64,000 nucleotides of DNA from an uncultured Desulfobacter sp. GTDB lineage: Bacteria; Desulfobacterota; Desulfobacteria; Desulfobacterales; Desulfobacteraceae. Where the stretch lies: the NCBI GenBank assembly GCA_963665095.1, contig OY762069.1, positions 928,001-992,000 of the forward strand, given 5' to 3'. Under the pieces are notes generated by a model. That model worked only from the letters and a program-made list of their open reading frames with translations, was not told the origin of the DNA and searched no databases. Positions 18,341-39,354 of the stretch are shown one piece after another (within the stretch, counting starts at the first letter, position 1; the number at the start of each line of letters is the position of its first letter). A program made the translations under genes and the position numbers.

Positions 18341-18641
18341 ACGGCACATTGACAGGTGTACACACTCCCAGTCCGCCCTATATCTGTTTCTGGTGTGTGT
18401 GGCCGACAGTCAAGGCATCAGCTACTATGGAGATAAGGCGATCATGGATCGGCTGTGCATGGATTCTGATGGCCTGAAGACAGCACGTTCCGGGTTAATA
18501 CAGAATGGGCTGATTGCCTGGCAGAGACCTATTTACCAGGTGCTTGCCCTTGACCCTGCTCCTGGTAAATCAAAACGGCACGGCTCCATGCTGCGTCTTT
18601 CAGATATTCTAAAAGCAGCAGCGGAGGGCAACCATGATTGA
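18255..18641 (+). CDS. Hypothetical winged-helix-like protein (IS21 passenger)
   Basis: FSWIDHRL...ALYLFLVCVAD..G.SYY; overlaps the istA start. Confidence 0.7.
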   Translation: MIAKAPILPSRVRKTPQSFSWIDHRLVRERHIDRCTHSQSALYLFLVCVADSQGISYYGDKAIMDRLCMDSDGLKTARSGLIQNGLIAWQRPIYQVLALDPAPGKSKRHGSMLRLSDILKAAAEGNHD

Positions 18642-19608: not shown

Positions 19609-20184
19609 ATGCTATCAGAACTTATTAAAAACAAAAATCTTTTTTTCCATCTTTACGAAATCGATAAAAATACAGCAAAACAGTACAGACAGTTGCCTTG
19701 TCCGCATTGTGGAGGCCCCTTATATTTCAGCAATTACATGCGCAAGCCCCGGGGAGAGCCTGAGGGCGTGCCGGAGGAATTCTTTATTCAGTTCAGCCTA
19801 TGTTGTGGAACCGAAGGGTGTCGCAAAAGATTGATGCCGCCGTCCTGCCGTTTTCTGGGGAGAAAAGTCTACTGGTTTGCAGTTATTCTGTGTGTTTTAA
19901 CAGACTGGCAAAATACCAATGAAAAAATCACCGTTTATGATTTGTCCATACGAACTGGCATTAGCCGGAACACAATAAACCGCTGGCTTGCCTTTTTTCA
20001 GGATACATTTCCAGTGAGCCGAACCTGGCGAAGGCTTCGGGGGCAGATATCCGCTGGTGTCAGTAACAGCCGTCTGCCGTCAAGTTTCATCAATTATTGC
20101 CGGGCGGTGAAATCCAACGCCGAAAACGCACTTGTATCAAGCCTGATAATCTTATCAGGCGGGTCCAAAATCAGGGCCGGATAA
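19609..20184 (+). CDS. Putative Zn-finger/HTH protein (DUF6431-like)
   Basis: CPHCGG...FSLCC...CRKR..P...RFLGRKVY...ISRNTINRW. Confidence 0.7.
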   Translation: MLSELIKNKNLFFHLYEIDKNTAKQYRQLPCPHCGGPLYFSNYMRKPRGEPEGVPEEFFIQFSLCCGTEGCRKRLMPPSCRFLGRKVYWFAVILCVLTDWQNTNEKITVYDLSIRTGISRNTINRWLAFFQDTFPVSRTWRRLRGQISAGVSNSRLPSSFINYCRAVKSNAENALVSSLIILSGGSKIRAG

Positions 20185-20290
20185 TCTCGCGCAGAGGATG
20201 AACATAGACAAATATATGCAGGCTGTTTTACCACCTGATTTCAGACGTTGATCCGAAATTTTAACCTGAAATTAAAAAGGAGCCTGATTT

Positions 20291-21736: not shown

Positions 21737-22560
21737 TGAACAGCAAACGATTATTGGCTTATTATGGATTGAAGTACAATCCTTTTTTACCAAATATTCC
21801 TGTGGACTCATTATGGCATCCACCCCGGATGGAGGCATTTATTACACGCCTTGAAAATATGACCATGAACGGTGGATTTGCATTAATCGCCGGTGAACCC
21901 GGTCTTGGCAAATCCAAGACACTACAGGCGATTGCCCATCAGCTTGGCAAGCTTGATGAAGTCGTTGTCGGCGTTATGGAGCGCCCCCAAAGCAGCGTGG
22001 CCGATTTCTATCGGGAAATGGGGACACTGTTTGGTGTCAATTTGAGTCCGGCCAACCGTTACGGAGGGTTCAAAGATCTGCGGCAACGATGGAAAAATCA
22101 TATTAAAACAACCCTGTTCAGACCCGTCCTGCTCATTGATGAGGCTCAGGAAATGCTTACCGGATGCCTGAATGAGCTTCGGTTGCTCAACAGTATGGAT
22201 TTTGACTCCCAGAATTTATTGACCACCATTATCTGTGGTGATACCCGGCTGCCGGAACGGTTCAGAACCAGTGCATTGGTAGCCCTGGGGAGTCGACTCC
22301 GGTTCCGGTTAAAATTGGATCCTTATACCCGGGAAGAATTGTTGGATTATATAGCGCATTGCCTAAATCAGGCCGGAGCTCCTCAACTCATGACAAAACC
22401 TTTAATCACCGCTTTGGTAGAGCACTGTACAGGAAACTTACGGGTCCTCAATAATATGTCGGCAGAACTGCTTGAAGTGGGCGTTCAAAGAGAGCTGCCG
22501 CAACTGGATGAGAAACTTTTCATAGAGCTTTTTTCACTGAAACCGTCGCCAACCAGATAA
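21736..22560 (+). CDS. ExeA-like AAA ATPase (MuB/TnsC-like partner)
   Basis: YGLKYNPF; Walker A GEPGLGKS; Walker B LLIDEAQ. Confidence 0.88.
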   Translation: MNSKRLLAYYGLKYNPFLPNIPVDSLWHPPRMEAFITRLENMTMNGGFALIAGEPGLGKSKTLQAIAHQLGKLDEVVVGVMERPQSSVADFYREMGTLFGVNLSPANRYGGFKDLRQRWKNHIKTTLFRPVLLIDEAQEMLTGCLNELRLLNSMDFDSQNLLTTIICGDTRLPERFRTSALVALGSRLRFRLKLDPYTREELLDYIAHCLNQAGAPQLMTKPLITALVEHCTGNLRVLNNMSAELLEVGVQRELPQLDEKLFIELFSLKPSPTR

Positions 22561-22571
22561 GAGGTATAAAA

Positions 22572-22814
22572 ATGACAATCAATGAAACACAACTTGAAAA
22601 AACAATGGCTGAAATTGTCGACGAGCTGGGCAATCTGGTCATGGAGTTGATCCTTGTCAGTTTAAAAAAAATAAACTCGGAAAATCATCTTTTGACAGAA
22701 TTGCTGGAGATCAAACAAGAGGAACAAAGAGAAAATGAATTTTATGGTTTTGGTGAAACGGAGCCGGGACATCCTGGGGAGGAAACCCGGCAAGGGATAG
22801 CCAAAAGCAGGTAG
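22572..22814 (+). CDS. Small hypothetical protein inside the transposon
   Basis: GAGG RBS; 80 aa; 3' end overlaps the conserved structured element. Confidence 0.45.
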   Translation: MTINETQLEKTMAEIVDELGNLVMELILVSLKKINSENHLLTELLEIKQEEQRENEFYGFGETEPGHPGEETRQGIAKSR

Positions 22815-22933
22815 CATTGAATAATGCGCCGGGGGAAGCGGGGTTGACCTGCTTCCCCTTTCTGTATTATTCAAGCTTTCCTGCTCATGCCTTAAAAAAC
22901 CCAATAAAATCAGTCGGAGCGCAGCGACATCTG
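22752..22933. ncRNA. Candidate structured RNA/DNA element, copy 1
   Basis: Closely similar to 37533-37707, with compensatory changes in the hairpins. Confidence 0.5.
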
Positions 22934-23645
22934 CTAATCATTGAAAATACAGTTATGCCTTTCCCTGATTTATCCTGATTGTCGCTCCATTGATTATCGT
23001 GCTTCCTCTCAGCAGAGATGTATGCCCTGGAATTGCCCCACCTATACCCTCTGCCGTCAGAACCCTATGATATCGGTGTGGTAAAGCAGGTACGGGCTTC
23101 AAGACAGTACAGGGTAGTCATCGATACAAATGCTTACACAGTACCCGCCCAGCTGGCAGGGGTGGCTTTGACTGCCAAGCTTTACCCTGATCGGATCTGC
23201 TTTTACCATGAAGACAAGTTGGTTGCCCGCCATGTCAGATCCTATGGCCGCAAAAACGACCTTGAAGATCCTGATCACTCTAAAATCCTTTTGAGCCAGC
23301 GCAAAAAGGCCAGAGACCAGGCAATTTATATGCGTTTTTTAAGCCTCTCTGACAAGGCCCGGGAGTATTACAGGCAATTGCAGAACAGGCGGCTTAACGC
23401 CTCCCATCATGTACGGCAAATCGTGGCCTTGAGTGAAATCTACTCCCGGGAACAAGTTGCCATGGCCATTGAAGATGCCTTTAAGTTCTCTGCATTCTCA
23501 TGTGAATACATCGCCAACCTCCTTGAGCAGCGGGTTCGGTCTCCCCAGGAGCCCGGAGCCCTGCATGTTACACATAAAGCAGATTTACTGAACCTGACAA
23601 TCCAGGAGCCTGATCTTAATATTTATACCGCCATAGGAGATAAAA

Positions 23646-24380
23646 ATGCCTGATCTTGAGAAATGCCTGTCCCACTTAAAACTACCTTATATCAGGGAAA
23701 ACTATGAGTCAGTGGCTACCCTGGCTGCCCAGAAGCAATGGAGCCACGTTCAATATCTATCAGAGCTTGCCAGGCATGAATCACTACTGCGCCATGATAA
23801 AACCATCCAGCGCCGTATCCGTATGGCCAAGTTCCCGGTAATCAAAACCCTGGACCAGTTCAACTGGTCATGGCCCAGAAAAATCAATCAGGCTCAGATC
23901 CAGAATCTGTTCAGACTCAAGTTCATTGAAGAAAAGGGTAACATTATCGTGATCGGCCCGGTCGGTGTTGGGAAAACACATATTGCGACTGCTTTAGGTT
24001 ACCAGGCCTGCCTGAAAAACCATACGGTTCTGTTCTCTTCTGCCATTGATATCGTCAACAATCTGGTGGCAGCCCAGAAGGCGGGTCAGTTAAAGCAGGA
24101 ACTGAGAAAATACCTCAAGCCAACTTTGTTGATCATGGATGAACTGGGCTACCTGCCCATTGACAAGATTGGGGCAGACCTGTTGTTCCAAATTATCAGT
24201 CAGCGCTATGAGCAAGGAGCCATCATAATAACCACAAACCGGGTGTTCAAAGATTGGCCGGAGATCTTCAACAATGACATGACATTAACATCAGCTTTGC
24301 TGGACAGGCTTCTTCACCACACCGAGCCTGTGGTCATTGAGGGTAAGAGTTTTAGAATGAAAGATGTGACGGAAGAATAA
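23646..24380 (+). CDS. istB: IS21 helper ATPase IstB
   Basis: GPVGVGKT, LIMDELGY, ALLDRLLHH, IEGKSFR. Confidence 0.95.
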   Translation: MPDLEKCLSHLKLPYIRENYESVATLAAQKQWSHVQYLSELARHESLLRHDKTIQRRIRMAKFPVIKTLDQFNWSWPRKINQAQIQNLFRLKFIEEKGNIIVIGPVGVGKTHIATALGYQACLKNHTVLFSSAIDIVNNLVAAQKAGQLKQELRKYLKPTLLIMDELGYLPIDKIGADLLFQIISQRYEQGAIIITTNRVFKDWPEIFNNDMTLTSALLDRLLHHTEPVVIEGKSFRMKDVTEE

Positions 24381-24620
24381 CAAAGCCGAGGCCGGTCTAC
24401 ATGCATCTGGAGGCCGGCCCTTTAATCGCCTACATTTTTAAACCGGGAGATTTATGACATGTTCACGCCCCGCCTGACAATTATTGCTGAAACAACCGGA
24501 CGGCCCCGCAAGGCTTAGTCTTAGAAATGCTTGAGCCGTATGACGGGAAACTGTCACGTACGGTTCTGAGGGGGCCTGGGGTAGATAACTACCCCCGGCT
24601 ACCCGATCCTAAAAACACCA

Positions 24621-24654
24621 TTGACAATAGTATCAATATTAGTATCATATAGAC
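24621..24654 (+). promoter_or_regulatory. Sigma70-like promoter of the hicAB cassette
   Basis: TTGACA-N16-TATCAT, 6 nt before the ATG. Confidence 0.65.
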
Positions 24655-24915
24655 ATGGGCCAAATAGAAAAGCTATTAAATGAAATTTCCAATAATCCAG
24701 CCAATGTAAAATTTACAGATCTATGCAGGGTCTGTGAACATTATTTTGGAAAGGCTCGTCAATCTGGTAGCAGTCATCGAATATATAAAACCCCGTGGCA
24801 AGGTGACCCTCGGGTAAATATTCAGAACAACAAGGGAAAAGCAAAAGCCTATCAAGTTAAGCAAGTGATCAAGGCTATTGAAAGATTGGAGGTAGGAAGT
24901 GACACTACAAAATGA
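24655..24915 (+). CDS. hicA: HicA-like toxin (cassette gene)
   Basis: GSSHRIYKTPWQGDPRVNIQ...KAYQVKQV. Confidence 0.85.
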   Translation: MGQIEKLLNEISNNPANVKFTDLCRVCEHYFGKARQSGSSHRIYKTPWQGDPRVNIQNNKGKAKAYQVKQVIKAIERLEVGSDTTK

Positions 24916-25228
24916 TCATTATACATATAGGGTTACTTGGTCTCCCGAGGACGAAGAATATATCGGCTTATGCGTGGAATTCCCAAGTTTAAGCTGGCTG
25001 GCCAAATCTCCTGAGTCTGCATTAAAAGGTATTCGTAAGACGGTAGAGTCGGTCATTCAAGACATGAAAGACAATGATGAAAAAATTCCCCAACCAATCG
25101 CTTCAAAAAATTATAGTGGTAAATTTATGGTTCGTGTTCCACCCGAAGTTCATAGAAGTTTAGCGATCCAAGCAGCAGAATCAGGGGTAAGTATAAATAG
25201 GCTCGTTAGTTCTCGTCTCAGTCAATAA
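24899..25228 (+). CDS. hicB: HicB-like antitoxin
   Basis: YIGLCVEFPSLSW...YSGKFMVRVPPEVHR.LA..AAE.GVSIN. Confidence 0.9.
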   Translation: MTLQNDHYTYRVTWSPEDEEYIGLCVEFPSLSWLAKSPESALKGIRKTVESVIQDMKDNDEKIPQPIASKNYSGKFMVRVPPEVHRSLAIQAAESGVSINRLVSSRLSQ

Positions 25229-25462
25229 TATTGGCACAATAGGGATAGGACTCCCCATTACTGAGGAGCCCTCCTACACCACCCGGCATACGGATCTCGT
25301 ACCAAGGCGGTTCGGCTGGTATGAATTAAATCAGTTGTAGGTTATCCCACCGATTTTATCGGGTTTTGGGCAAAGTCTTGCTATAGAAATTTCGGCCACT
25401 GCCGCATTATTCGTAAGCGTTTAAAGGACCCCATCTACAAATCATTAAAATGACATGAGAAG

Positions 25463-25825
25463 ATGAGCCAACTTTTAATGGAGGCCCATCATATGTCAGA
25501 AACAGAGAAGAAAAACCAAAAACTAACCCAGTTCTGGAAGTACCACATTAAACAATGGTCTGAATCGGGTATGTCCCAAAATGCATACTGCAGGCAAAAT
25601 GATTTAAGACCCAATCAATTTACATACTGGAAAATGAAATTCAAAAGCCAGGCACTTGTTCCAGAATTCGTCCAGGTCCCTTCAACGCAGATCAGCCAGG
25701 CGCTAAGCCTTTCTGAACGAAAAGGCTTAGCGTTGAATACAGATAACGGATTTCAGATCGAAATACCGGATGGCTTTTCCCAAACAACCCTGGCCCAGGT
25801 GCTTCAAGTATTGAGGCGGTGCTGA
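25463..25825 (+). CDS. tnpA: IS66 accessory protein TnpA
   Basis: W..HI..W..SG.SQ..YC HTH; first ORF of IS66. Confidence 0.85.
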   Translation: MSQLLMEAHHMSETEKKNQKLTQFWKYHIKQWSESGMSQNAYCRQNDLRPNQFTYWKMKFKSQALVPEFVQVPSTQISQALSLSERKGLALNTDNGFQIEIPDGFSQTTLAQVLQVLRRC

Positions 25826-26178
25826 TGTTTTCTTCCACCCAGAATTTAAAAATTCATATCGCACTTGGAAACACTGATATGCGCAAGGCCATTGATGGGC
25901 TATCCATACTTGTGAGCGAAAAATTAAATTTGGATCCATTTTCGGGACACATGTTTGTATTCTGTAACCGGAAACGGAATATATTGAAAATCCTGTATTG
26001 GGATCGCAATGGATTCTGTCTTTGGCACAAGCGCTTGGAAAAGGATTATTTCCAATGGCCCAAGTCAAAAGAACAGATTTTGACCATCGGAGCAAAAGAG
26101 CTTTCCTGGCTGATGGACGGACTTTCTATTCGTCAGGAAAAAGCACATAAATCATTAAAATATTCGGCTGTTTTTTGA
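25819..26178 (+). CDS. tnpB: IS66 accessory protein TnpB
   Basis: TDMRKAIDGL...FVFCNR...KILYWDRNGFCLWHKRLE. Confidence 0.95.
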   Translation: MLMFSSTQNLKIHIALGNTDMRKAIDGLSILVSEKLNLDPFSGHMFVFCNRKRNILKILYWDRNGFCLWHKRLEKDYFQWPKSKEQILTIGAKELSWLMDGLSIRQEKAHKSLKYSAVF

Positions 26179-26190
26179 TCATAAAAACTG

Positions 26191-27816
26191 GTGAAAACCG
26201 CGTGGTTATGGTATATACAACGCATGAATAAAGAGGCTTTTGCAGACATAAATGACGTTGAGAAATTAAAAGAAATGATGGCTTGTTTTGTCAATGATTT
26301 TTCAGATAGAGAGCACAATTATAAAGCCGAAATCAAAATTCTCAACGAACAGATTAAAAGCCTTCGGGACCAACTTTTTGGTAAAAAGACAGAAAAAATC
26401 CATAAGGATGACGGTCAACTATCCCTTTTCGATACTTTTGAGCCGGAAACTCCCATATTGGACGAACCCGAAGATATCAGCGTGCCTGCCCATAATCGAA
26501 AGAAGCCAGGGTGCAGGCCTTTGCCTGAAAACCTTCCACGGGTTGAAGTGATCCACGATCTGACCGAGGAAGAAAAAATATGTGCCTGTGGCTGCATGAA
26601 ATCCCGTTGCGGCAAAGAAGAATCTGAACAGCTTGAAATTATTCCGGCACAAGTGAGAGTAATCAGAAACATTCGTTATAAATACGCTTGCAAAAACTGC
26701 GAAGGTGTTGACGATGATGGGCCAACAGTGTCCATTGCCAGAATGCCGGAACAAATGATCCCCAAGAGCATCGCAACCCCAGGGCTTTTGGCCCATATCC
26801 TGACAGCCAAATTTGCAGATGCTTTACCCTTCTACCGGCAGGAAAAACAGTTTAACCGAATTGGAGTAGACATCCACAGGTCCAATATGTGCAATTGGGC
26901 TATGAAAGTGGCCCAGGCCTGTGAGATCCTGCTGGAATATATGAGGGATGAAATCCTTAAAGGCCCAGTGATAAATATTGACGAAACAACAGTCCAGGTT
27001 CTTAAAGAACCCAAACGGTCAAAATGCTATATGTGGGTGTTCAAAGGAGGGGCACCGGATAATCCCATTATTCTGTTCCAGTATCACGCAACTCGATCCG
27101 GGGATGTTGCCCGGAATTTTTTGAACGATTATCAAGGTATTGTCCAGACGGATGGCTATGCTGGCTATGACTTTCTTGATCATATCGTGGGAATTATTCA
27201 TATTGCGTGTTGGGTACACGCACGTCGAAAGTTCATGGCTGTGTCCAAAGCTGCCGGAAATAAAAATGGCAACCCGACGGGAATCGCAGGCAAAGCCCTG
27301 AAGTACATCAGCAAGTTATATAAAATAGAGAAAGAGGCCAAAGAACTTGGTTTGTCTGCTGAGGGACTTTACCGGAAAAGACAGGAACTATCCTTGCCTA
27401 TCCTTGATGAATTTAAAAAATGGTTGGATGCTCAAGTTGAAAAGGTACCGCCCAAAAGTCTTCTTGGTAAAGCCATTAACTACACCCTTAATCAATGGCA
27501 TAGATTGGTTCTGTATACGGCAAGTGGTCTGGTAATGCCGGATAATAATGTAGTCGAAAATGCCATAAGACCCTTTGTGGTGGGCAGAAAAAATTGGTTG
27601 TTTTCATGTACACCTGCGGGCGCCGATGCCAGTGCCTGCATTTACAGCCTGATCGAAACAGCCAAGGCCAATGGACTTGAACCTTACTGGTACCTCAAAT
27701 TTCTCTTTGAAAATTTACCGGAAGCCATGACAGAGGACGAATTCAAAGCCTTGATGCCACAAAACGTAGATAAACATTTGCTGGAATCCAACTATACAAC
27801 ACCCCGTCAGGCTTAA
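26191..27816 (+). CDS. tnpC: IS66 transposase TnpC
   Basis: LPFYRQ, IDETT, QTDGYAGY, CWVHARRKF, DNNVVENAIRP. Confidence 0.95.
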   Translation: MKTAWLWYIQRMNKEAFADINDVEKLKEMMACFVNDFSDREHNYKAEIKILNEQIKSLRDQLFGKKTEKIHKDDGQLSLFDTFEPETPILDEPEDISVPAHNRKKPGCRPLPENLPRVEVIHDLTEEEKICACGCMKSRCGKEESEQLEIIPAQVRVIRNIRYKYACKNCEGVDDDGPTVSIARMPEQMIPKSIATPGLLAHILTAKFADALPFYRQEKQFNRIGVDIHRSNMCNWAMKVAQACEILLEYMRDEILKGPVINIDETTVQVLKEPKRSKCYMWVFKGGAPDNPIILFQYHATRSGDVARNFLNDYQGIVQTDGYAGYDFLDHIVGIIHIACWVHARRKFMAVSKAAGNKNGNPTGIAGKALKYISKLYKIEKEAKELGLSAEGLYRKRQELSLPILDEFKKWLDAQVEKVPPKSLLGKAINYTLNQWHRLVLYTASGLVMPDNNVVENAIRPFVVGRKNWLFSCTPAGADASACIYSLIETAKANGLEPYWYLKFLFENLPEAMTEDEFKALMPQNVDKHLLESNYTTPRQA

Positions 27817-28383
27817 AAAGGTGCGGTTGATACACCGCTTACCATTATTCCCATAAAATCCTTCTACTTACTCACCACAACCATTTACCCAAGCCATTCG
27901 GCCCGGGTACCGTTCAGGCCTTCATCGGGGTGAGGCCTCCGGGTGTACTTCTCCCATGCCAGGGAGGCCCGGCTCGTTTCCTCCGACTACTATGCCCTCT
28001 GCTGACTTCTCCCATGCGGTCAGGACCAGTTACCCGGCCCTCAGCCAATCCGGCACATGGGAGATCTCCCGGGGTAAACACGTGTCTTTCAGTACGTGAA
28101 TGCCGGATTTACGGACATACCCTGTAATGGATAGAGGACTTCACCTTGTTGTGCAGGCTCGTCCCGGTATGTGCGCCTTATATCCGATTCCTGTACGTCA
28201 CCCCGTACCTTCGTGGTACCTTGCCTCAGCAAGGCGGCTTCCTCCCGAAGCACCGTCACCGATACCCCGTTGCACTACCACTACGCCCTTCGCCTCCATC
28301 CGGCTGGGCCTAAGACTTGTCAAATGCTTTAAAATTCATTACATTTGACTCACTTTTAAGCTCACGTGCCGTGCCCGGCACAC

Positions 28384-28508
28384 ACAAATCGCTGGAGAGG
28401 GACCAGGCTTACTGCGCGGCCTTTCGGGAGGGCCTGGTTCAGGAAATTTTATCTTTTTATCGGGAGTTTTTGGGTTTAAAAGCCTGGCCCCTCAGCTCCC
28501 CGTTAACT
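28384..28508 (+). other. attC body (R'' begins at 25234; ~130 nt when reconstituted)
   Basis: ACAAATCGCTGGAGAGGGACCAGGC...GCCTGGCCCCTCAGCTCCCC GTTAACT. Confidence 0.85.
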
Positions 28509-28557
28509 CCCCTAAAAAAAACTTGCTCCCAAATCGGAAACGTCTTATATTGATTTT

Positions 28558-28851
28558 ATGAGAGTGATCTCCAGAAAAATGATAAAAGAATTTTGGGAAA
28601 TCCATCCTGATGCAGAACAGCAGCTTCGAGCATGGTATACGAAAACCAAATTGGCCAAGTGGAAGTCACCTTCTGATATTAAAAATGATTACAGAAATGC
28701 GAGTTTTGTCGCTAATAATCGTGTGGTTTTTAATATCAAGGGGAATAATTATCGGTTAATTTCGGCTATCAATTACGAGTTCGGTATTGTTTACATTCGT
28801 TTTGTTGGCACTCACAAGGAATATGATAAAATTGATGCAACATTAATATGA
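28558..28851 (+). CDS. higB: HigB toxin (cassette gene)
   Basis: MRVIS...RVVFNIKGNNYRLI...YIRFVGTHKEYDKI. Confidence 0.92.
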   Translation: MRVISRKMIKEFWEIHPDAEQQLRAWYTKTKLAKWKSPSDIKNDYRNASFVANNRVVFNIKGNNYRLISAINYEFGIVYIRFVGTHKEYDKIDATLI

Positions 28852-28860
28852 GGGCAAACA

Positions 28861-29232
28861 ATGGAAATAAAACCAATTAAAACTGAAAACGACTATCTTA
28901 ACGCATTAAATGAAATTGAAAAAATAATTGATGCAAAGAAAGACACTCCTGAAGGGGATAAACTCGACATCTTGGTTACGCTTGTTGAAGCATATGAAGA
29001 AAATAACTATCCGATTCTCCCTCCTGATCCGGTAGAGGCAATTATACATCAAATGGAAAGCCAGGGGCTATCACGAAAAGATCTTGAGCCTTTAATCGGA
29101 TCAAGAGCCAGAGTGTCTGAAATTTTAAATAGAAAAAGATCCTTGTCGCTCAACATGATAAGAAAACTGCAAAAAGGACTAGGGATATCAGCAGAAATAC
29201 TGGTCACGCCTTATCAACTTGAAGCTTCATGA
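28861..29232 (+). CDS. higA: HigA antitoxin
   Basis: LVEAYE...PDPVEAI...GSRARVSEILNRKRSLSL.MIR.L. Confidence 0.92.
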   Translation: MEIKPIKTENDYLNALNEIEKIIDAKKDTPEGDKLDILVTLVEAYEENNYPILPPDPVEAIIHQMESQGLSRKDLEPLIGSRARVSEILNRKRSLSLNMIRKLQKGLGISAEILVTPYQLEAS

Positions 29233-29246
29233 TTTTGAAAAATATG

Positions 29247-29262
29247 AATTAACACTTAGAAG
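29247..29262 (+). other. Truncated attC (R'' only), apparent end of the array
   Basis: AATTAAC nearly complements GTTAACT at 28502; no hairpin or R' follows. Confidence 0.45.
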
Positions 29263-30289
29263 GTCCCTAATTGTCAATAAATAAAATAATCGTGTCGAAA
29301 TCAAAGGGCTGCCTTTCTTTCTTTACCTTCACGTTCAAGGTGTTCCCTGTTTTTTGAACCCGGTACTGACTTGTATTTCATATCCGGAGACAGAAAAATT
29401 CTGCACCAAACACTTATTGAGGATCAACCACCGGTGGTCAAAGGGTTGCCATTGAATAATTTCAACGGTCCTTTGCCTGGCAGCTGCAGCAGTTCCAAAT
29501 TTGCTGCGTCCTAGAAACTGTAATGTTCCCTTATGCCGTCCTATTCAAAACCGGCCTGGTCATAAAAAATATGCCAGAGTTAGTTGCGGGATCGGGGGAG
29601 GAGCAGAACCTGATCAAAAAAACTATGGGTATAAGAGCCCGGCGGATGTCCAATCAAAACAGTTGGCTGTGGTAATGGCAGAGTATGGACAGTGAACATG
29701 CTCAAAGCATATAGGGTTTGTCCCCTGTATAACCATACCGGCTGCACGAACAATAACGCCAGTTAGGCTCTCGGGATCATCCGCCGCCTCTTTAGCCGAC
29801 GGCTAAAAATGCTTTCATATCAAAAACCTTTCTGGTTTTCAGCATATGATAAACGGCCCGGCCAAGTTTGTGGGCCAGGATGGACAGTGCTTTTCCCTTG
29901 CCATGTTTATTGCACAGTTTGTTGTAATATTTTTGCCCGGGTTCATTGCCCTTGAGGAACAGTTGTGCGGCTTGGGAAAAAGACCAACGCAAATGTGCAT
30001 TACCGATTTTCTTCCCGGAAGAACCATATTTTTTGCCGTTGGATTCTTTGGCGCATTTAACAAGCCTGGAGTATGAACCAAAATTCTGGACTCTGGGGAA
30101 TCGACTGATAACATTCTCCCTGTTTTTAGGCCTGTTGGAAATCCGTCCCAAAGTCTCCTGCAAATTATACTGGCTGGCTGTATTTTGAGCATGGGTAAAA
30201 AGCTCTGCACGTTTTCGCATAAAGTAGTTTCTTCTACGCATTAAATCCCTGGTTGAGCGCATGTGGGAAGGATAGGCGTATGCGGTAGG

Positions 30290-31813
30290 TATAATGGACC
30301 CCGAAATTTGAACCAGTTGCTAAGGTACATATGAGGTGATAAAAACCCGGTTCAAATTTGTACCGAAAAAGGAGGTCCATGAGAAAAAATTATACCGGAA
30401 AGTTCAAAGCTAAAGTTGTAGTTGATGTGATTCGAGAAAATGAAACTCTTGCGGAGTTGTCATCCAAATACCAGGTTCATCGAACTATGTTAAACAGATG
30501 GAAGAAAGAAGCGATAGAGGGTCTTCCGACGTTGTTTTCATCAGCGAAAAAGAAAAGCCCAAATGATACTCAGAATCTAATAGACGAATTATATAAGAAA
30601 ATCGGTCAGCTCGAAGTTGAGAATGACTGGTTAAAAAAAAAGGTTAATACAATCAATCTCTGACAGAAGGGGGTTGATAGATAAACAACATCCTTCCATC
30701 AGCATTAACCGGCAGTGTGAACTGCTTCAGGTTTCAAAAGGGGCGTTGTATTACAGGCCGGTAGCCATAAGCCCGTATACATTAACCCTTATGGATCTGC
30801 TTGATGAGCAGCATACCAAAACCCCCTTTTATGGAAGCCGTAGGCTTACAGCCTGGCTGAACAATATGGGGTATCCGGTAAGCAGGAAACGAGTACAGCG
30901 CCTGATGAAGCTGATGAGAATAGAAGCGATTTACCCAGGACCTAAAACAACAAGGAGGGATGAAAGCCATAAAGTTTACCCCTATTTGCTGAAAAATGCC
31001 GTAATTGACAGGCCAGATCAGGTATGGAGTACAGATATCACATACATTAGAATTGGAAACGGATTTATGTACTTATTGGCGGTTATGGATTGGTTTAGCA
31101 GATATGTCCTTTCATGGCGCCTCAGTAACACCCTTGAGAATACATTTTGTATTGAGGCCCTTGAGGAGGCATTGATTGTATCGACACCTGAGATTTTCAA
31201 CACTGACCAGGGTAGTCAGTTCACTTCATTAAAATTTTTGAAGATACTCCAGGCTAAAAACATCAAAATCAGCATGGATTCAAAGGGCAGAGCCTTGGAC
31301 AACGTTTTTGTGGAACGGCTGTGGAGAACGATTAAATACGAAGAAGTCTATTTGAAGGACTACAGAACGGTAAGAGAGGCTCAGCAATCGTTAAAAGCGT
31401 TTATCGGGTTTTATAATCGGGAGAGACTTCATTCAGCCCTGGGGTATAAGGTGCCGTTTTCGGTCTATCGAGCGGCTTAAAGGAAAGGCCTGATGCCTCC
31501 GGCGGCCCTACGGGGTATTGATTTCGCGCTAAGGCGCGAGGATTTAACGCATTAAGGACAAAAACATGGGGGAAGGACAGCATACATTAAACGTATACTG
31601 CCCCCATGTCTTCGTCGCCAGCCACGGCGCTCAGGTTGCTTCCCAGCATTGCCCTATCCTCCGGGTTGGCGGCGGGAGGATAACATAGCGGTATTAAATA
31701 TCAAGAAAAATATGCCGGAAAAGAGGGTCTTTAACAGGCTGATTCGAAATTAGAAACAGAGAAAATGTAGCTTAAAAAACGTTAAAATCGGTCTTGACAT
31801 GGGGTCCACTTCA
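30290..31813 (+). mobile_element. IS3-family element
   Basis: Inverted repeats TATAATGGACCCC/GGGGTCCACTTCA; 3-bp target duplication AGG; removal restores the IS110 frame. Confidence 0.92.
30379..31480 (+). CDS. IS3 transposase OrfAB (orfA 30379-30663, orfB to 31480; probable programmed -1 frameshift)
   Basis: A9G run at 30633-30642; WSTDITY, NTDQGSQF, DNVFVERLWR. Confidence 0.9.
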
Positions 31814-32137
31814 AGGAATTAATTTGCCCCGGAGCAAAGAGGCTATTTTAAGAGAATCAATCTTGTCATTTTTGCTTTTGCCGCCATGAATGGCACGCAT
31901 ATACAGCGCATGTCCCAAGATGAAAGGAATTTTTTCTTCAGCACACAAGTCTGCCAGGAGTTTAGGAGATAAGTCTCTCGGGATCGCTGAACGCCTTTAT
32001 TGATAATGATAAGCCTTTTCGGATGTGTCTTTTGTAGTACCCCTCAAATTAAACCGTCTTCTATGTTAAAAACCCTGTCAAACTGGGCTTTCTATTATTT
32101 TTTTTGATTTGTAAGACCTCACCATATACTATGAAGC

Positions 32138-32750
32138 ATGGCACATTTCCACATCAAGAAGAAAAAAGGAAGACCCTACCTTTATGTGAGGGAGATCGCT
32201 CGGGTAAACGGCAAGCCCAAGGTCATTTCTCAAACCTATATTGGTTCACCGGATCGGGTAGCGGGCCTTGTGAAGGGACAGTCTCAGGAAATAACAACCT
32301 TGAGGGCTGAAGAATTCGGTGCGCTGTGGTTGGCCCAGCAAGCAGATAAAGACTTTGATCTTTGCTCTTTGATTGATGGGATTATTCCACCTGCAGATCG
32401 AGAAAAAGGACCTACAATAGGGGAATATTTCCTTTATTGTGTCTGGAATCACATGATTGAGACCGCCAGTAAAAACAAATTGTCGGATTGGTATAAGAGA
32501 GCCACGATCCAGCATATACGCCCTGTCGATCTAAACGAACTCTCATGCAAACGATACTGGGACAAATGGGACCGGGTTGATGAAAAAACCTTAAACGCTA
32601 TCATATCCAAGTTCTTTGAACGTTTATGGCAGGTCGAAAACCCTTCTTCTGATTGCCTGCTATTTGACACCACTAATTATTATACCTTCATGGGAAGCCA
32701 AACCGAGTCAAAAATAGCGCGCAGGGGTAAAAACAAGGAAGGGATGATCA
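32138..32750 (+). pseudogene. IS1634-family transposase, N-terminal fragment
   Basis: MAHFHIKKKKGRPYLY...LLFDTTNYY...RGKNKEG, then truncated. Confidence 0.8.
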
Positions 32751-33006
32751 GGAGGCGACCGTCAATCTCGTATTGAATGTTGGATGCTTTAAACATGGGA
32801 ATCGACTGTTCATCCCAATTCCGCTTGTTGAGCTTTTTGCTTATTTTTTTCTTGCATTTTGCCAGTTTTTTGCTGATATTTTTATTCACTCGAAACGTCC
32901 TTTCAATTTGGTATATTTCGTTGTGGTAAACTTATTATACCTTTTATTGATAGGCGTTTCGAAGATTTTATCTCATTTTTATTGCTTATCTCACGCTTGT
33001 TTTGAG
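32750..33006 (-). pseudogene. Transposase N-terminal remnant with element end (IS1380-like)
   Basis: MNKNISKKLAK...PMFKASNIQYEIDGR abuts the IS1634 fragment. Confidence 0.5.
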
Positions 33007-33050
33007 ATTAAAATGACAGTTTCTTGGAGAAGCCAGGAAAGGAGACAGTA

Positions 33051-33824
33051 ATGAAAGTCACCGTTTGCGAACTACCCAATAACTGGATTAATTCTAAATC
33101 AGATCAAGAAAAATTCCTATATCATCTTGAATCTGAGAAGACTGAACTGTTGTTATTGCCTGAAATGCCTTTTTCTTCTTGGCTGGCGGGAAAGAGGCTG
33201 CCTGATAAGAAAGCGTGGGAAAAGGCTGTGGCTAATCATAACATTTGGATAGAGAGGCTGGAAGAATTCAATGTACCGGTTATAGCCGGATCCCGGCCTG
33301 TGATAAAAGAGGGGAGGCCGCTGAATGTCGGATTTGTCTGGACCCGTGAACAAGGGGTAAAAGCGGTTCATGAAAAATATTATCTTCCTGATGAAGAGGG
33401 GTTCTGGGAATCAAGCTGGTATCACCGGGGCGACGGTCGTTTTGAACTGATTACGATCAACGGCCTGAAAATCGGATTTCTGATCTGTACGGAAATCTGG
33501 TTTAATCACCATGCACGGGAGTACGGCAAAATGGGGATGCATCTGCTGCTCTGCCCCCGTGCTGTGGGGTCGGTTACAACCGAGACCTGGCTGGCTGGCG
33601 GGCGGGCCGCGGCAAATGTGTCAGGGGCCTATTGCCTCTCTTCAAACTTTAATGGAGCCATTACGCCGGAGATGAATTTCGGAGGAACCGGATGGATAAT
33701 AGAACCGGAAGAGGGATTTGTCATGGGCAGGACATCTGAAAAAGAGCCGTTTCTTACCTTGGAAATAGATATCAGTCAAGCTGAAAAGGCCAAAGTCACA
33801 TACCCAAGGTATGTTAAAGAGTGA
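33051..33824 (+). CDS. Carbon-nitrogen hydrolase (nitrilase superfamily)
   Basis: LLLPEM, HEKYYLP, GFLICTEIWF (E-K-C triad). Confidence 0.9.
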   Translation: MKVTVCELPNNWINSKSDQEKFLYHLESEKTELLLLPEMPFSSWLAGKRLPDKKAWEKAVANHNIWIERLEEFNVPVIAGSRPVIKEGRPLNVGFVWTREQGVKAVHEKYYLPDEEGFWESSWYHRGDGRFELITINGLKIGFLICTEIWFNHHAREYGKMGMHLLLCPRAVGSVTTETWLAGGRAAANVSGAYCLSSNFNGAITPEMNFGGTGWIIEPEEGFVMGRTSEKEPFLTLEIDISQAEKAKVTYPRYVKE

Positions 33825-33925
33825 TCTGTCCTGTCTTTTGGGGACAATTGATAATTGGGTTCAGCAGGATTCTTTTCATCGATGAGTCGGGTACAGTCTG
33901 TCCAAAAACTGCAGATCCATATAAT

Positions 33926-34421
33926 ATGAGAATGAATCTATCTGTTATGGAAACTAAATTTTGCACAATTCTAAATGCCCTAAAAAGCCCTGTAAATGTC
34001 GGTATGATTTTAAGAAGTCATGTAGCTTATGGCGGTGCAGAATTTATATTCACCGGTCAGGATCATTCATGGAAATTCAAAAAAGGGACACAGGTATTTT
34101 CCAGAAAGTTAGAAAATCAGTGCAACATTCTTCACATACCTGATCAGTATGACGCCTTGAGATGGTGCAGAAAAAACAATTATACGTCTATTGCTGTTGA
34201 GATTGCAAAAAAAAGCACATTTTCTGGATGAATTCTCATTTCAACATTGCTCGGCCATCATTGTTGGAAATGAAGAACATGGCCTTGATACCGGATTTAC
34301 GGAAAAGTGTGACCATATTGTGACCATAAAGCAAATTGGAAAAGTTGGCAGTTTGAATGTTGCGGTATCAGCTTCGACGGCAATGTTTGAATTCAACCGT
34401 CATTCCATTAAAGGGTGTTGA
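33926..34421 (+). pseudogene. TrmH/SpoU RNA methyltransferase, frameshifted near 34207-34223
   Basis: PVNVGMILRS in one frame; VGNEEHGL and SLNVAVS in the next. Confidence 0.8.
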
Positions 34422-34884
34422 AATCGATAACGTCTAAATATTACCAATCGCTTGAATCTGAAAGCATTTACGTCTAAAAAGGCCTCTGTTTAGTTGTAAT
34501 ATTTAATCGCCAAAAAAAAGAAAACACCACCACAGAGGCCTTATGCACGAGAAAAATATCAAGCGACTCATCACAAATCAATTGAATAAAAAAAATTCCC
34601 GAACTGGAAAAGGATGCCAAAGAAGTCCAAAAAAGAGCTGACAAAACAAATCATGATAGAAGTTGAAGGCAATTATTATTCTCAGAGCCTGGTGTAGATT
34701 CCCGAAATAATCTGAACAAAAACCCGCCAAATTTTTCATATTAAATTGACAAAGTTCCATTTTTCTCAAATTATCCTGTACAGGTTCTGATCAAAGCATT
34801 CTGACAAAAATGAAAAGGGCGAAAAGCTTTGCAGAGCCTCGCCCTTAAGACCGGGATTTATAAAATCCCAAAACAACCATAAAA

Positions 34885-35331
34885 ATGATAATAAAGGTCA
34901 AAGCTGATATCAAGCAAATTTTCAAGCAGGGCAAAAATTTTACATGGCCAAAACCGTCACGATGTCCACATTGCAACGACTCCAGGCTGTGGGGACACGG
35001 CTTTGTACTCTCCTTTTTTGATGGATTTGATCAAGGGGTGTATTTGAAGCGATATCGCTGCCCCTATTGCAAAACCGTATTCAAATTGAAGCCATATGGT
35101 TTTTTCAAGAGGTTCCAGGCCAGTATCTGGCAAATCCTTACCAGCATTATGAGTCGTCTATACACAGACCGGTATCTGCCGGAACTCTCCTGGAGTCGAC
35201 AGCATTTTTGGTTTACTGCATTGAAACGAAATATAGCGGCCTACCTGTCCAACAGTTGGGACAAAGGTGTGGTTGCTGGTTTTATCAAGCTAATCGGTAT
35301 GGGTAAAATCCCGGTTACCAGTTCAATTTAA
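34885..35331 (+). CDS. Putative Zn-finger protein (DUF6431-like)
   Basis: CPHC....WGHG...RYRCPYC. Confidence 0.75.
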   Translation: MIIKVKADIKQIFKQGKNFTWPKPSRCPHCNDSRLWGHGFVLSFFDGFDQGVYLKRYRCPYCKTVFKLKPYGFFKRFQASIWQILTSIMSRLYTDRYLPELSWSRQHFWFTALKRNIAAYLSNSWDKGVVAGFIKLIGMGKIPVTSSI

Positions 35332-35434
35332 CCATGGGGCTGGATCAGGTTTAAACCACCCTACCGAAGGCTGTGATTTACCGAAGGATCATACTGTCAT
35401 ACAAGCCCTTAGAACCAAATTTTAAGGAGGAAGT

Positions 35435-36691
35435 ATGACAGAAAATCAGAAAAAAGAGGTTGCCGTGTTCAGGTTTGGGGTCATTTGTGAATTTGTGACC
35501 GGAACAAATTTTGATTACGGTGAAAAAGAACGAATTTTACAGCAGAAGTGCGCCCGCAAATGGTCCATCCCGTATTCTGGAAGGACCAGGCTTTCCAGAA
35601 GTACGATTCTGGGATGGGTCCGGCAGTATAACGGTCGAATAGAGTCTCTTTACCCCAAAGACCGTTCAGACCAGGGAAAATCAAGGGTATTCGATGACGA
35701 GACTGCATCTCAACTAATCAAACTCCGGTTAGACCAGCCTGATGCGACAGTCGATACATTGATCTGTTCACTTCAAAAAACTACATGCCAGACATACAGT
35801 CCATCCAGTGTATACCGTTTTTTACGCGGCCGGGGGCTAATGAACACGGCCCGGCCAGAGGATAGAAGAAAGTTTGAAGCCCCGCACCCCAATGATATGT
35901 GGCAAAGCGACGTCATGCACGGCCCTACAGTCCTGGTTCAGGATAAGCAAAGAAAAACGTACCTGATTGCCATTATGGACGATCATTCCAGGCTGGTTAC
36001 GGCTGCAGGTTTTTATTTATCTGAGAATCTGAAGACCTATCTTATGGTGCTGGAGCAGGCTTTTTTGAGCCGTGGGCTTCCCCGCAAGCTGTATGTAGAT
36101 AACGGTCCTGCGTTCAGATCCCATCATTTAAAATATGTAGCAGCGTCTCTGTCCATCGCTTTAATCCATGCAAGGCCATATAAGCCCCAGGGGAAAGGTA
36201 AAATCGAGCGCTGGTTCAGAACGGTTCGGCTTCAGTTTCTGCAAAGATTTACAGGTAAGACCCTGGATGATCTGAATGGGGCATTTGAGAAGTGGCTTCA
36301 TAATGAGTACCATCAGCGTAAACACAGCTCCACAGGCGAATCACCGTTTAAAAGATTTACCTCGGCCATGGAGTGCATCCGTACCGCCCCACCGGATCTG
36401 AAAGACCACTTCCGCAAAACCGCCCGGCGCAAGGTGGCAAAGGACCGAACCATCACCCTTGACGGCAACATGTTTGAGGCCCCGGTTGCGCTGATCGGCA
36501 GACATGTGGATGTAAAGTACCATGAGGACACCCCTTTGCAGGCTGAAGTTATCTATAAAGCAAAGTCTTATGGCTTGTTAACCCCGGTGGACCTTGCTGT
36601 GAACTGTCGGGTCAAGCGGCACCGCTGGAACGAAAATGATATCCGGATTATGCCTGAACCCTCAAATTACAAGGGAGGGCAACTGTTATGA
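35435..36691 (+). CDS. DDE integrase-type (rve, Mu/TnsB-like) transposase
   Basis: AVFRFGVI, WQSDVMHG, MDDHSR, RGLPRKLYVDNG, PQGKGKIERWF. Confidence 0.92.
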   Translation: MTENQKKEVAVFRFGVICEFVTGTNFDYGEKERILQQKCARKWSIPYSGRTRLSRSTILGWVRQYNGRIESLYPKDRSDQGKSRVFDDETASQLIKLRLDQPDATVDTLICSLQKTTCQTYSPSSVYRFLRGRGLMNTARPEDRRKFEAPHPNDMWQSDVMHGPTVLVQDKQRKTYLIAIMDDHSRLVTAAGFYLSENLKTYLMVLEQAFLSRGLPRKLYVDNGPAFRSHHLKYVAASLSIALIHARPYKPQGKGKIERWFRTVRLQFLQRFTGKTLDDLNGAFEKWLHNEYHQRKHSSTGESPFKRFTSAMECIRTAPPDLKDHFRKTARRKVAKDRTITLDGNMFEAPVALIGRHVDVKYHEDTPLQAEVIYKAKSYGLLTPVDLAVNCRVKRHRWNENDIRIMPEPSNYKGGQLL

Positions 36692-37497
36692 GTGAAATGT
36701 ATCGTACCTTTTTTGGCTTATATAGGGAGGCCTTCCCGGCGCAGATAGAAATCAATGATATCCTGGTCACCCCGGAGGTCTCGGGCGTTAAAAATCGGAT
36801 TGATTATTCCTTAAGACTTGGTTGCAGTGCGGTTATCACAGGGGATGTGGGCAGCGGAAAGTCCACCGCCTTAAGGTATGCCGCCTCATCCCTACACCCT
36901 TCGGAATACAAAGTCTTTTATGTTACGGCCTCAAGCGGTTCCATCATGGAACTTTACCGGCAGATTGTTGAAGAACTGGGCATAGAGCGGACATCGACGT
37001 CCCGCGCTGTTATGATCTCCATTATTAAAAATGAAATACGTGAATTCGTCCTGGGAAAAAAGATCAAAACCGTTTTGATTATAGATGAGGCATCTCTGCT
37101 TCGCATGGAAGTCTTTGCCGAACTTCACACCCTGGTTCAATTTGAAAAAGACGCCATGCCCTGGCTGCCTGTGATCCTTGCAGGTCAGCCGACATTGATA
37201 GATAAGCTTCAGTACCGGACGTCAATCCCGTTTGCATCCAGGATTGTGGCTAAAAGCCATCTGGATGGTCTGGATGTGGCTGGAATGAAAACTTACCTGA
37301 TCCATCATTTAAAACTATGCGGTGTTGACACCAACTTTTTTTCTGACCAGGCGGTGACTGCGATTCATCAAGGCTCCGGCGGCCTTTTACGAAAGGCGAA
37401 TAATCTTGCCAGAGGCTCATTGATTGCTGCTGCGGCAGAAAAATCAATGACGGTATCTGCAGAGCATGTCCGCATTGCTTCATCGGAAATTTTTTAA
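36688..37497 (+). CDS. ExeA-like AAA ATPase
   Basis: FFGL...F; GDVGSGKS; LIIDEAS; ILAGQP. Confidence 0.9.
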   Translation: MSEMYRTFFGLYREAFPAQIEINDILVTPEVSGVKNRIDYSLRLGCSAVITGDVGSGKSTALRYAASSLHPSEYKVFYVTASSGSIMELYRQIVEELGIERTSTSRAVMISIIKNEIREFVLGKKIKTVLIIDEASLLRMEVFAELHTLVQFEKDAMPWLPVILAGQPTLIDKLQYRTSIPFASRIVAKSHLDGLDVAGMKTYLIHHLKLCGVDTNFFSDQAVTAIHQGSGGLLRKANNLARGSLIAAAAEKSMTVSAEHVRIASSEIF

Positions 37498-37532
37498 GAA
37501 AAAACAGCCATAGAGCAGAATATTACGATTTC

Positions 37533-37707
37533 GGTGAAACGGAGCCGGGCTCTGCTGAGGAGCAACCTGGTAAGGGATAGCCGGAAGCAGGCAGCATTGA
37601 ATAATGCGCCAGGGGAAGTGGGGATTACCTGCTTCCCCTTTCTGCTTTATTCAAGCTGTTCTGCCTATGCCTTAAAAACCTACTGAGAAGGAGCGCAGCG
37701 ACTTCTG
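37533..37707. ncRNA. Candidate structured RNA/DNA element, copy 2
   Basis: Homologous to 22752-22933; no ORF at this copy. Confidence 0.5.
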
Positions 37708-39354
37708 TAGCTGTCTTAAATAATATGGAAAAGATTTAATCTGTTCAAAATAATTAGAAAATTTAAGTCAGGATAAAATGCGACTCAACACTGGATGTTC
37801 CTATCGAAGAACTCATCGGGATTCAAGATCAGACATTCTCAGCTGGCATTCGTAGCCTTTCTGAGATGGCATCCTATATTGAAAGTTTTCATTCAGAAAA
37901 CTTGTTTCATTTTGATACCTTGAAAAAGTCATATCCGGAAATTGTAGACCCGGAATTGCAGTTTATTGATCAACTGATAGACAATCAGATCATCAACAGC
38001 TTGATTACACCCGACAGCTATTCCGCCCCGCACAGGGATATTCAGCCATATCAGTTGTTTCGATGGAGCTTTTAAAAATAATCAAATACCCAGAGATCAG
38101 TTACAGAAAATTTTGCAGCGACAAGTATTTTGGTAGAGAACGAAAGCAAAACCGGCGTTTTGTGAGACTGCCTTTAAAGACTAAACTTCAGGCTGACCAT
38201 ACTGAATTGTGTCATTTTCGGCGTAGCCTGAATTTCACACAACTAATGAATGTCCTGGTGTATTTTTTCCATCATTTTTATAAATCTGGTTGTCTTGAAA
38301 GCGCGGTTATTCATGGCGTTGATTCTACTGAGTTGCCATCAGAGATCAACTATCCCCTTTGCACAATTAAGATCAAAGGCAAAAAGGTACGAATCTATTC
38401 CGACATGGATTGTGATTGTGGAAAGCGCCGGAAGAAAAGAGATAAGTCGTATTATGTTATTGGCTATCGGCTTCACACCCTGACAGCTATCAATCCATTG
38501 ACTGGCCATAGCTTTCCTTTGGTATCCCTTGTGGGGGCAGCCAATCATCATGACAGCCTGTTTTTAAAACCTTTGATAAAGCTTGCTCAGGCATTAGGCA
38601 TTGATATTAAGTTGATAACGGCCGATCAGGCTTATCACGATAGTGACGGTTCTACTCTTAATGACACCGGAGTTTATATTGTCGCCCCTGCATCAGAGAA
38701 AACGAAACTACCTGAAAATGTATTAGAATCACCCTTGAGGGTTACCTGTAATGATTCATGCGAGTTCCCAATGAAGTATTTGGGGACAACACAGGACGGC
38801 CATGAATTTGGCTGCGGTACAACACCAGGTGAGTGTATGTTCGAATCAAGATCCCCCAAATCAAGAGTCCTGGCTTTTGATAGTGGTTATTTCCAGCCAA
38901 TGCCGACGTTTCATCAAGGTTCTCAAGAAGCAATCGAGATTCGGAAGAACTGTGAACGTCCTTTCAATTTGATGAAAAAAAGGGAAGGCTTCGAACAAAC
39001 AAGGGTAAGAAGCCAGCATGCTGTAGTTGTTCGATCAGCGTTGACAACAATTGTAACCTTGTTGCTTGAAATGGCTGGTACAAGGCAGAAGCCTCAGAAA
39101 AAATATAATAAACAAAGGGAGTTGTTTGCAGCCACAGGATAAATCAAAAAATTCGACATTGAATTTTTCATAAAACCGATAGCTCGGACAATACCGGTAT
39201 ATCTGAAACCTCACCAAGGCCGTTTCATAAGATGAAAACACGCGGTAAAAATCAAATTCAGATTATACGACGGTAAAAATGAACTACTGGATTTTGAAAA
39301 AGAAAAAATTCAAACCTGTGAGGCAATTATAACTCCGTTATGATTTAAATAGTG

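Follow-up and report, generated by a model that had tools for sequence, protein, structure and literature searches.

The 64,000-nucleotide (nt) stretch of DNA analysed in this study (the window; positions 928,001 to 992,000 of contig OY762069.1, assembly GCA_963665095.1, of an uncultured Desulfobacter sp.) contains two three-gene transposons, E1 (19471..23011, plus strand, 13 copies in the genome) and E2 (34693..37790, plus strand, 14 copies). Near their right ends both carry a closely similar cassette, which comprises a predicted RNA and a putative DNA site for its docking. The gene set common to both elements consists of a small upstream open reading frame (ORF), an IS481-like DDE transposase that scores below the cut-off of the family, and an ExeA-like AAA+ ATPase. 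In E1 these are a zinc-finger-like ORF (19609-20184), the transposase (20291-21736) and the ATPase (21706-22560), followed by a further small ORF (22572-22814); in E2 the first ORF is located at 34885-35331, the transposase at 35435-36691 and the ATPase at 36688-37497. Bacillota relatives of the three-gene transposon carry the annotation DUF6431-integrase-AAA. The termini of E1 and E2 are TG...CA, and target duplications were found at 12 of 13 E1 copies (3-7 base pairs, bp) and at 12 of 14 E2 copies (4-5 bp). The ends of E2 are backed by an empty site in three of four public sequencing runs; a circle junction of E2 was not found in the contigs of four public runs, which as contig data weigh neither way. 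E1 splits the istA gene of an insertion sequence (IS) of the IS21 family with a 3-bp duplication (window 18634-24380).

The conserved stretch in E1 and E2

The original prediction, made from the sequence letters, had pointed to a structured element shared by two transposons with otherwise divergent proteins and located about 80 nt from the right end of each. This description was confirmed by measurement. The segments 22752-22933 and 37533-37707 are 80.2% identical over 192 nt (E 1.4e-43 in a search of the 6.9-Mb genome), with all of the quoted words at their places, whereas the two transposases are 27.6% identical over 380 amino acids and the two ATPases 22.6% over 235 amino acids. The distances to the right ends are 83 nt in E1 and 88 nt in E2. 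In folding energy both copies surpass 200 of 200 shuffled sequences (z -4.9 and -3.8).

Judged by its sequence, the shared stretch is made up of two parts and is not one unit: a 5′ part of about 115 nt, predicted to be an RNA, and a 3′ part of about 40 nt, a putative DNA docking site. The RNA of E1 would be transcribed from 22748..22865 (plus strand). It starts with helix P1 (22748-22754 paired with 22800-22806), which closes over a conserved linker (22755-22763), the P2/P3 hairpin with a GGGG loop (22776-22779) and an AGGGATA anchor (22793-22799); a guide segment (22807-22827) and a terminator-like hairpin with U tract (P6, 22831-22859) follow. The docking site (22865..22902, plus strand) consists of the guide complement (22865-22884), ATGCCT (22887-22892), an A run and CCC (22900-22902) as partner of the P3 loop, and just 3′ of it lies a GC-GNA-GC mini-hairpin (22913..22928, plus strand). 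The same parts are found in E2: a predicted RNA (37529..37646, plus strand) with P1, P2/P3 and its GAGG loop (37557-37560), the AGGGATA anchor (37573-37579), the guide and a terminator-like P6 (37611-37639); a docking site (37646..37681, plus strand) with guide complement, ATGCCT (37667-37672), A run and CCT (37679-37681), the compensatory partner of the GAG loop; and the mini-hairpin (37690..37702, plus strand). The compensatory change that had been read from the two copies (TCCT-GGGG-AGGA and TGCT-GAGG-AGCA) is present. What had been described as a long three-segment hairpin is a terminator-like hairpin, flanked by an RNA segment and the separate target site of this segment. Neither E1 nor E2 was found to hold a second docking site, and no orphan site in the genome had a matching guide.

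A divergent sibling cassette (31540..31680, minus strand) lies between both transposons in an IS3-family element (about 30290-31813, about 10 copies). It shares P1/P2/P3, has a different anchor word, and its GGGA loop is matched by TCC after the A run; a -10-like box is in register. At another place in the genome, a second variant shows changes in P1. Plasmid pOR1 carries a 5′ domain of the sibling type with the same anchor variant and no clear site, and a viral scan for the sibling class gave four loci.

Structure and covariation of the family

The structure was derived from 78 representatives with less than 85% identity to one another. Throughout this set, P1 (7-8 bp) closes over the conserved linker, P2/P3 and the AGGGATA anchor, where P3 consists of 4 bp and a 4-nt loop. 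After the anchor follow a variable guide, the GC-rich hairpin P6 with its T tract, the guide complement, ATGCCT, the A run and CCN. In a MAFFT alignment the covariation score was 0.43, far above shuffled (0.16) and slid (at most 0.12) controls, with 87% of cells paired and two-sided changes in 18 of 27 pairs. P3 and some of the anchor are out of register in this alignment and are therefore undercounted by the score; separate anchored counts gave paired bases in 448/468 cases for P1, 375/389 for P2, 311/312 for P3 and 231/234 for the loop with CCN. The idea of a functional folded module under strong constraint is upheld by these values. The module is, however, neither specific to these transposons or their proteins nor one unit.

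Three pairings connect the 5′ part with the site: CCN pairs with the P3 loop, ATGCCT pairs with AGGGAU on both sides of a conserved purine mismatch, and the variable guide pairs with its complement over 10-18 bp. For the first of these, a metagenome scan selected non-G loop variants only, with no selection on the 3′ side. It delivered 125 loci with 123 distinct matches (32 were discarded as chance by a crude filter and 10 were cut by contig ends), and the matching site base was present in 43 of 48 cis cases. The guide can also form an alternative small hairpin with an exposed loop. One linker base and one anchor base swap together (A/G to G/A) in 170 of 171 sequences, which suggests a tertiary contact. 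A pairing of the linker with the P2 internal loop was also considered and dropped, as variants break it.

The strand of the predicted RNA is indicated by the wobble pairs, which favour the plus strand (64 G-U and 9 A-C in P1), and by the P4-P6 region, which folds better on this strand in 70 of the 78 representatives. P6 is the least conserved part, and the 5′ domain and the site are the most conserved ones, other than in a simple intrinsic terminator, where only hairpin and U tract are kept. In Rfam 15, a search with 17 distant homologues gave no match at E<=1; for the window copies no family reached its gathering score and no meaningful match was obtained at E<=10. A known ribozyme, one of the suggestions made at the outset, did not emerge from the comparison with the hammerhead, HDV, twister, pistol, hatchet and glmS models.

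Promoter and terminator signals

Upstream of P1, promoter boxes are enriched in a fixed register. TAnnTTTG, the Bacteroidota -7 box, occurs in 37 of 169 upstream regions (0.7 expected, at most 4 in 300 shuffles), TTGAC in 19 (1.6 expected, at most 7) and TAnnnT in 81 (31 expected, at most 50). The peaks are 17 nt apart and put the transcription start at P1. A hairpin followed by a T-rich tract was found in 39 of the 78 representatives, compared with 2 of 78 on its other side, and P6 scored as terminator-like in both window copies. In E2, a weak promoter-like pair (TTTAAG-17-CAGAAT, 37493..37521, plus strand) lies in the family register; it matches 7 of 12 consensus positions and was missed by the strict scan.

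These signals bear on a reading in which the cassette acts only as folded single-stranded DNA, i.e. as a single-strand origin for a host enzyme, with no RNA involved. Both halves indeed lie on one strand in the IS elements and in a phage-like contig and can fold in cis, G-T wobbles and covariation fail to tell DNA from RNA (PMC5737381), and folded ssoA origins of about 160 nt are known (PMC5703833). Lineage-specific promoter boxes in register and a terminator placed between the halves argue for a transcript instead. Together with the plasmid sites described below, which lie on the opposite strand up to 1.4 kb away and stay complementary to the 5′ half, they make a purely DNA-based function improbable.

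Detached sites in small plasmids

Small RepL-type plasmids carry the RNA in another arrangement. In 17 of 20 such contigs RNA and site are separated, and the site occurs once per strand, at distances from the RNA of about 60-1400 nt. Of the three remaining contigs, one has one site, one carries two sites on a single strand, and one breaks off directly behind the RNA. A RepL-like gene is present in 19 of the 20 contigs and a MobV relaxase in most. A Pfam analysis of 64 plasmid ORFs detected RepL and Mob_Pre and no primase, in contigs that may be incomplete. The plasmid sites carry the complement of the guide of their own RNA in the same register as the IS copies, and this pairing beats shuffled sequences (p<=0.05) in 13 of 17 rows, of which those from related plasmids are not independent. 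The chance rate of docking sites is about one per Mb (7 orphans in 6.9 Mb). In a named Tunicatimonas plasmid, the RNA is altered in both anchors, and two opposite-strand sites around repL are altered to match. Since complementarity is kept to sites on the opposite strand, which a cis fold cannot do, action of the 5′ half in trans, as an RNA that pairs with DNA, is well supported by the sequences.

The plasmid arrangement also bears on the view of the whole stretch as a single cis-folded RNA of about 160 nt, such as a riboswitch, attenuator, self-cleaving ribozyme or antisense regulator, controlling transcripts of the transposase or of neighbouring genes. A double-pseudoknot-like fold with a terminator-like hairpin inside is possible in the IS copies, and in E1 and E2 the position at the 3′ end of the transposase operon would suit such a regulator. 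The plasmid 3′ halves, in contrast, are detached, duplicated and on the opposite strand; in addition, the cassette takes either orientation and several positions with respect to transposases, and no ribozyme or riboswitch in Rfam matches. We therefore consider this explanation quite improbable. A cis-only pseudoknot was considered and given up. The antisense reading offered by the original prediction and the reading as a simple terminator fail to explain the plasmids.

Two of the small RNA-bearing plasmids have a gene for an Hcp-fused nuclease, followed in one of them by an SMI1/KNR4 immunity-like gene. A word very like the docking site is found in the staphylococcal plasmids pT181 (position 3773) and pSN2 (position 1224), and the 5′ RNA domain in neither. 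This word is presumably RS_B, a conserved part of the ssoA origin that is primed by RNA polymerase. In pSN2 it lies in inverted orientation behind repL, an arrangement shared with the plasmids that carry the RNA.

Distribution and exchange among elements

The stretch is present in 63 of 401 genomes of the class to which the window belongs. A three-word pattern scan of 185,579 genomes gave at least 115 loci; a simple filter passed 105 of the 115 listed, and two of the ten rejected loci later proved real by their scores. By record title, the matches listed include Desulfobacterota, Bacteroidota, Planctomycetota, Magnetococcales, Cloacimonadota, Marinimicrobia, Delongbacteria, a Sphaerochaeta, a Dehalococcoidia and an Oscillospiraceae bin, about ten phyla overall, and an Acidobacteriota plasmid also carries the stretch. 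A model search in a sample of 151 Bacteroidota genomes, with 19 candidates scored per genome, was positive for at least two genomes. By blastn, no match was obtained in 5,426 E. coli genomes. In one viral contig of 5.4 kb, which encodes a Zot/pI ATPase, both RNA and site lie on the coding strand; this is so far a single case. A first viral pattern was too loose (0 of 120 loci matched the profile), and blastn against phages gave only chance matches to T4-like fibritin.

The neighbouring transposases belong to IS3 (at least 20 loci), the IS256 type (11), IS110 (11), an IS481-like group (3), ISL3 (2), IS21 (1) and the IS1202 type (1), all as lower bounds from pattern-selected scans with no background rate and with relatives not collapsed. 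At least 33 distinct three-gene elements carry the cassette. Among the loci listed, transposases of IS4, IS630 and IS1 were not adjacent, and one IS5-like fragment was 849 nt off. A multicopy comparison placed the motif inside the element in two IS110 groups, one IS3 group and several three-gene elements. Both orientations to the transposase occur, and in the IS21 case the cassette lies between istA and istB. In two IS110 elements about 360-380 further non-coding bases follow the cassette, which leaves room for a bridge RNA or seekRNA of their own.

When three-gene elements were picked by their proteins, 3 of 14 had the cassette, and three Bacillota relatives were without it. The identity of the RNA is nearly unrelated to that of the ATPase (rho 0.10 for 528 pairs of 33 elements), and 21 pairs show more than 88% RNA identity at less than 35% protein identity, with an extreme of 95% RNA at 26% protein identity. 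Accordingly, the likeness of E1 and E2 reflects both constraint and exchange, the latter as suggested from the two copies beforehand. On these comparisons, the cassette appears to be a swappable helper and not a core part of the three-gene transposon family. Optional presence and exchange would also be expected for a plasmid replication cassette that is carried passively by insertion sequences and plays no part in their transposition. Yet insertion sequences of many families and phyla keep promoter, RNA, terminator and site with compensatory changes, which needs selection inside the insertion sequence, so that passive carriage is very improbable.

Some further observations concern the elements and their surroundings. 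The small acidic ORF after the E1 ATPase (22572-22814) is kept in relatives with and without the cassette, and its 3′ end overlaps the 5′ domain of the E1 RNA. In one subgroup of three-gene transposons, an AAA_25 (RepA-helicase-like) ATPase is the fourth gene, directly upstream of the RNA. The 14 copies of E2 show blocks of shared substitutions in mosaic combinations, as expected for gene conversion among copies. The IS21 stretch interrupted by E1 has about 14 intact copies elsewhere in the genome, and a further E1 copy sits at another position of the same IS21. In the segment 513-28265 of the window, elements of IS21, IS66, IS3 and other types are densely nested, and Rfam gave 12 matches to pieces of group II introns.

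Proposed mechanism

We propose, with a probability of roughly 0.6, that the cassette consists of a predicted RNA of about 115 nt and a site of about 40 nt, and that the RNA serves as a preformed, trans-acting primer for the copying of single-stranded DNA. If transcribed from the upstream promoter and terminated at P6, the RNA would be open and active, with the loop of the guide hairpin exposed, while read-through RNA would fold onto the copy of the site that it carries and be closed. The two fixed, short and broken anchors together with the guide would clamp the 5′ domain of the RNA on single-stranded DNA. RNase H would then cut the longer distal hybrid, and the resulting 3′-OH would be extended by polymerase I, as for ColE1 RNA II. 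In small RepL plasmids one strand would be primed at each of the two sites. In the filamentous-phage-like genome, priming of the minus strand would start from the site on the coding strand, where a minus-strand origin would lie.

Copy-out transposition needs second-strand synthesis, and elements of the IS3, IS21, IS110, IS256 and ISL3 families move through circles. In such copied-out circles the cassette would be an optional helper that turns the displaced single-stranded circle double-stranded; on a circle, a priming cassette would work in either orientation. More broadly, the data may point to an undescribed, widespread class of programmable primer RNAs, in which a fixed DNA-gripping core is combined with a re-writable guide. 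Such RNAs would prime in trans at separate single-stranded sites and would serve as initiator of a family of small RepL plasmids, as minus-strand origin of some filamentous phages and as second-strand primer captured by at least eight IS families for copy-out. For this wider picture we see somewhat better than even chances.

The main rival also has the RNA dock in trans, where it would act as an adaptor that opens or marks the site for RNA polymerase, primase or a PriA primosome, or as a catalyst that nicks the strand and so provides a 3′-OH. It draws on the same evidence for pairing in trans. About 30 near-invariant unpaired bases and the A/G-G/A covariation suggest a pocket for binding or catalysis. 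The site resembles the word in pT181 and pSN2, and in 29 of the 78 representatives it is followed by the mini-hairpin, which is similar to words in the priming regions of ColE1 and phiX174. On the other hand, a variable covarying guide duplex that points away from the fixed anchors is laid out as expected of a primer end, a DDE or DEDD transposase would gain nothing from an internal nick, and the host transposases are unrelated, so no protein of the element is required. We rate this alternative as unlikely.

Several observations weigh against a primer RNA. Its 3′ end would be the P6 hairpin about 40 nt beyond the hybrid, so processing must be assumed, and single-stranded DNA of the IS copies could fold onto its own site (-33 to -37 kcal/mol as DNA) in competition with the RNA. 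The strict promoter scan called no promoter in either window copy, and E1 is without a pair in the family register; its RNA may therefore come from a processed operon transcript or be replaced by the nearly interchangeable RNA of E2. In the plasmids, guide-site pairing is modest, the cognate site is not always the best partner and many of the plasmids are related. The RNA was not found in four other RepL plasmids (pSN2, pONE430, pBM-Cp-1-9 and pRGI01449), and RepL plasmids of staphylococci are described as rolling-circle plasmids that are little studied (PMC5703833); the poor fit with this description may mean that several RepL schemes exist. At many loci no recognisable transposase stands beside the motif, and the IS family counts carry the reservations given above. 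Finally, the cassette is missing in 11 of the 14 relatives picked by protein, 8 of which have a complete right end with a plain hairpin instead.

Comparison with known systems

Like RNA II of ColE1/pMB1, where RNase H and polymerase I are followed by n′-pas/ssiA, the proposed primer is a predicted host-transcribed, structured RNA that would bind origin DNA close to an A run and give rise to a primer by processing; some copies also have a similar mini-hairpin after the site. For RNA II, processing by RNase H and extension by polymerase I are described in PMC3167613. In contrast to RNA II, which has several hundred nucleotides, the RNA predicted here has about 115 nt and its own terminator, and it occurs in IS elements. 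Moreover, the RNA II primer acts in cis, whereas the sites found here lie on both strands, far from the RNA gene, and are separable and duplicated. The family model has no match in ColE1, and no antisense counterpart of RNA I was seen, with antisense promoters looked for only in strict scans of both window copies.

IncQ plasmids have two priming sites, one on each strand. The small mobilisable plasmids, with one candidate priming site per strand in 17 of 20 contigs and in the Tunicatimonas plasmid, recall this arrangement of ssiA and ssiB in RSF1010. There, a plasmid primase acts at oriV (PMC4595007), whereas in our plasmids no plasmid primase gene was seen and specificity would lie in covarying RNA-DNA base pairs. 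The available text of the same paper gives RNA polymerase, host primase and plasmid primase as routes of second-strand priming on single-stranded DNA; a preformed trans-acting RNA is not among these three, which separates the cassette from ssoA/ssoU, Frpo, G-sites and pas. In comparison with ssoA, the IS copies can form a long hairpin of single-stranded DNA and have an RS_B-like word, whereas the plasmid sites are without a partner arm on their own strand.

Structured RNAs or motifs tied to plasmid replication are also represented by the MRB RNAs of pB1067, two complementary RNAs in a plasmid with no Rep (PMC3035462), and by ARRPOF, GEBRO and PAGEV, which are listed as plasmid motifs with a mechanism not known (PMC5737381). 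The cassette has no Rfam match to any of these, and none of them is reported with insertion sequences in the accessible parts of both sources.

Like the bridge RNA or seekRNA of IS110 and the OMEGA RNAs, the predicted transcript is a non-coding RNA inside an insertion sequence that would base-pair with DNA, and at least 11 loci lie beside IS110 transposases. Unlike bridge RNA or seekRNA, the same RNA is found beside unrelated DDE transposases and in plasmids free of recombinases. Its guide matches a site inside the element, and by inspection the flanks of E1 and E2 are not complementary to one guide. Among the functions initially suggested, a targeting RNA came closest, with the correction that the targeted site belongs to the element and is not the insertion site. 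RNA-guided insertion was rejected as a candidate: the flanks of E1 share no sequence, and those of E2 show only a weak (A/C)TGG preference.

In summary of these comparisons, the cassette would join the working principle of ColE1 RNA II to the two sites of IncQ and yet would belong to neither, and it does not appear to be a bridge RNA, a defined single-strand origin or a member of an Rfam family. A full-text literature search found no description and no match for the core words, where supplements were outside the search and an unnamed listing in motif catalogues is possible. We are dealing with a real RNA-plus-site system that is apparently undescribed.

Even if the priming step were wrong, the RNA family and its cross-strand pairing of RNA to DNA appear to be new. 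If it is right, a trans-acting RNA with a fixed core and a variable guide would add a fourth route of priming single-stranded DNA to those by RNA polymerase, host primase and plasmid primase. Exact, testable sequences are now at hand for two open points, namely the priming of the displaced strand in copy-out transposition and the start of replication in RepL plasmids, where small plasmids have a helix-turn-helix protein of 18-20 kDa as sole initiator. Work on compatible replicons, addressed by RNA, for Bacteroidota, Planctomycetota and sulfate reducers could then also naturally begin from this system.

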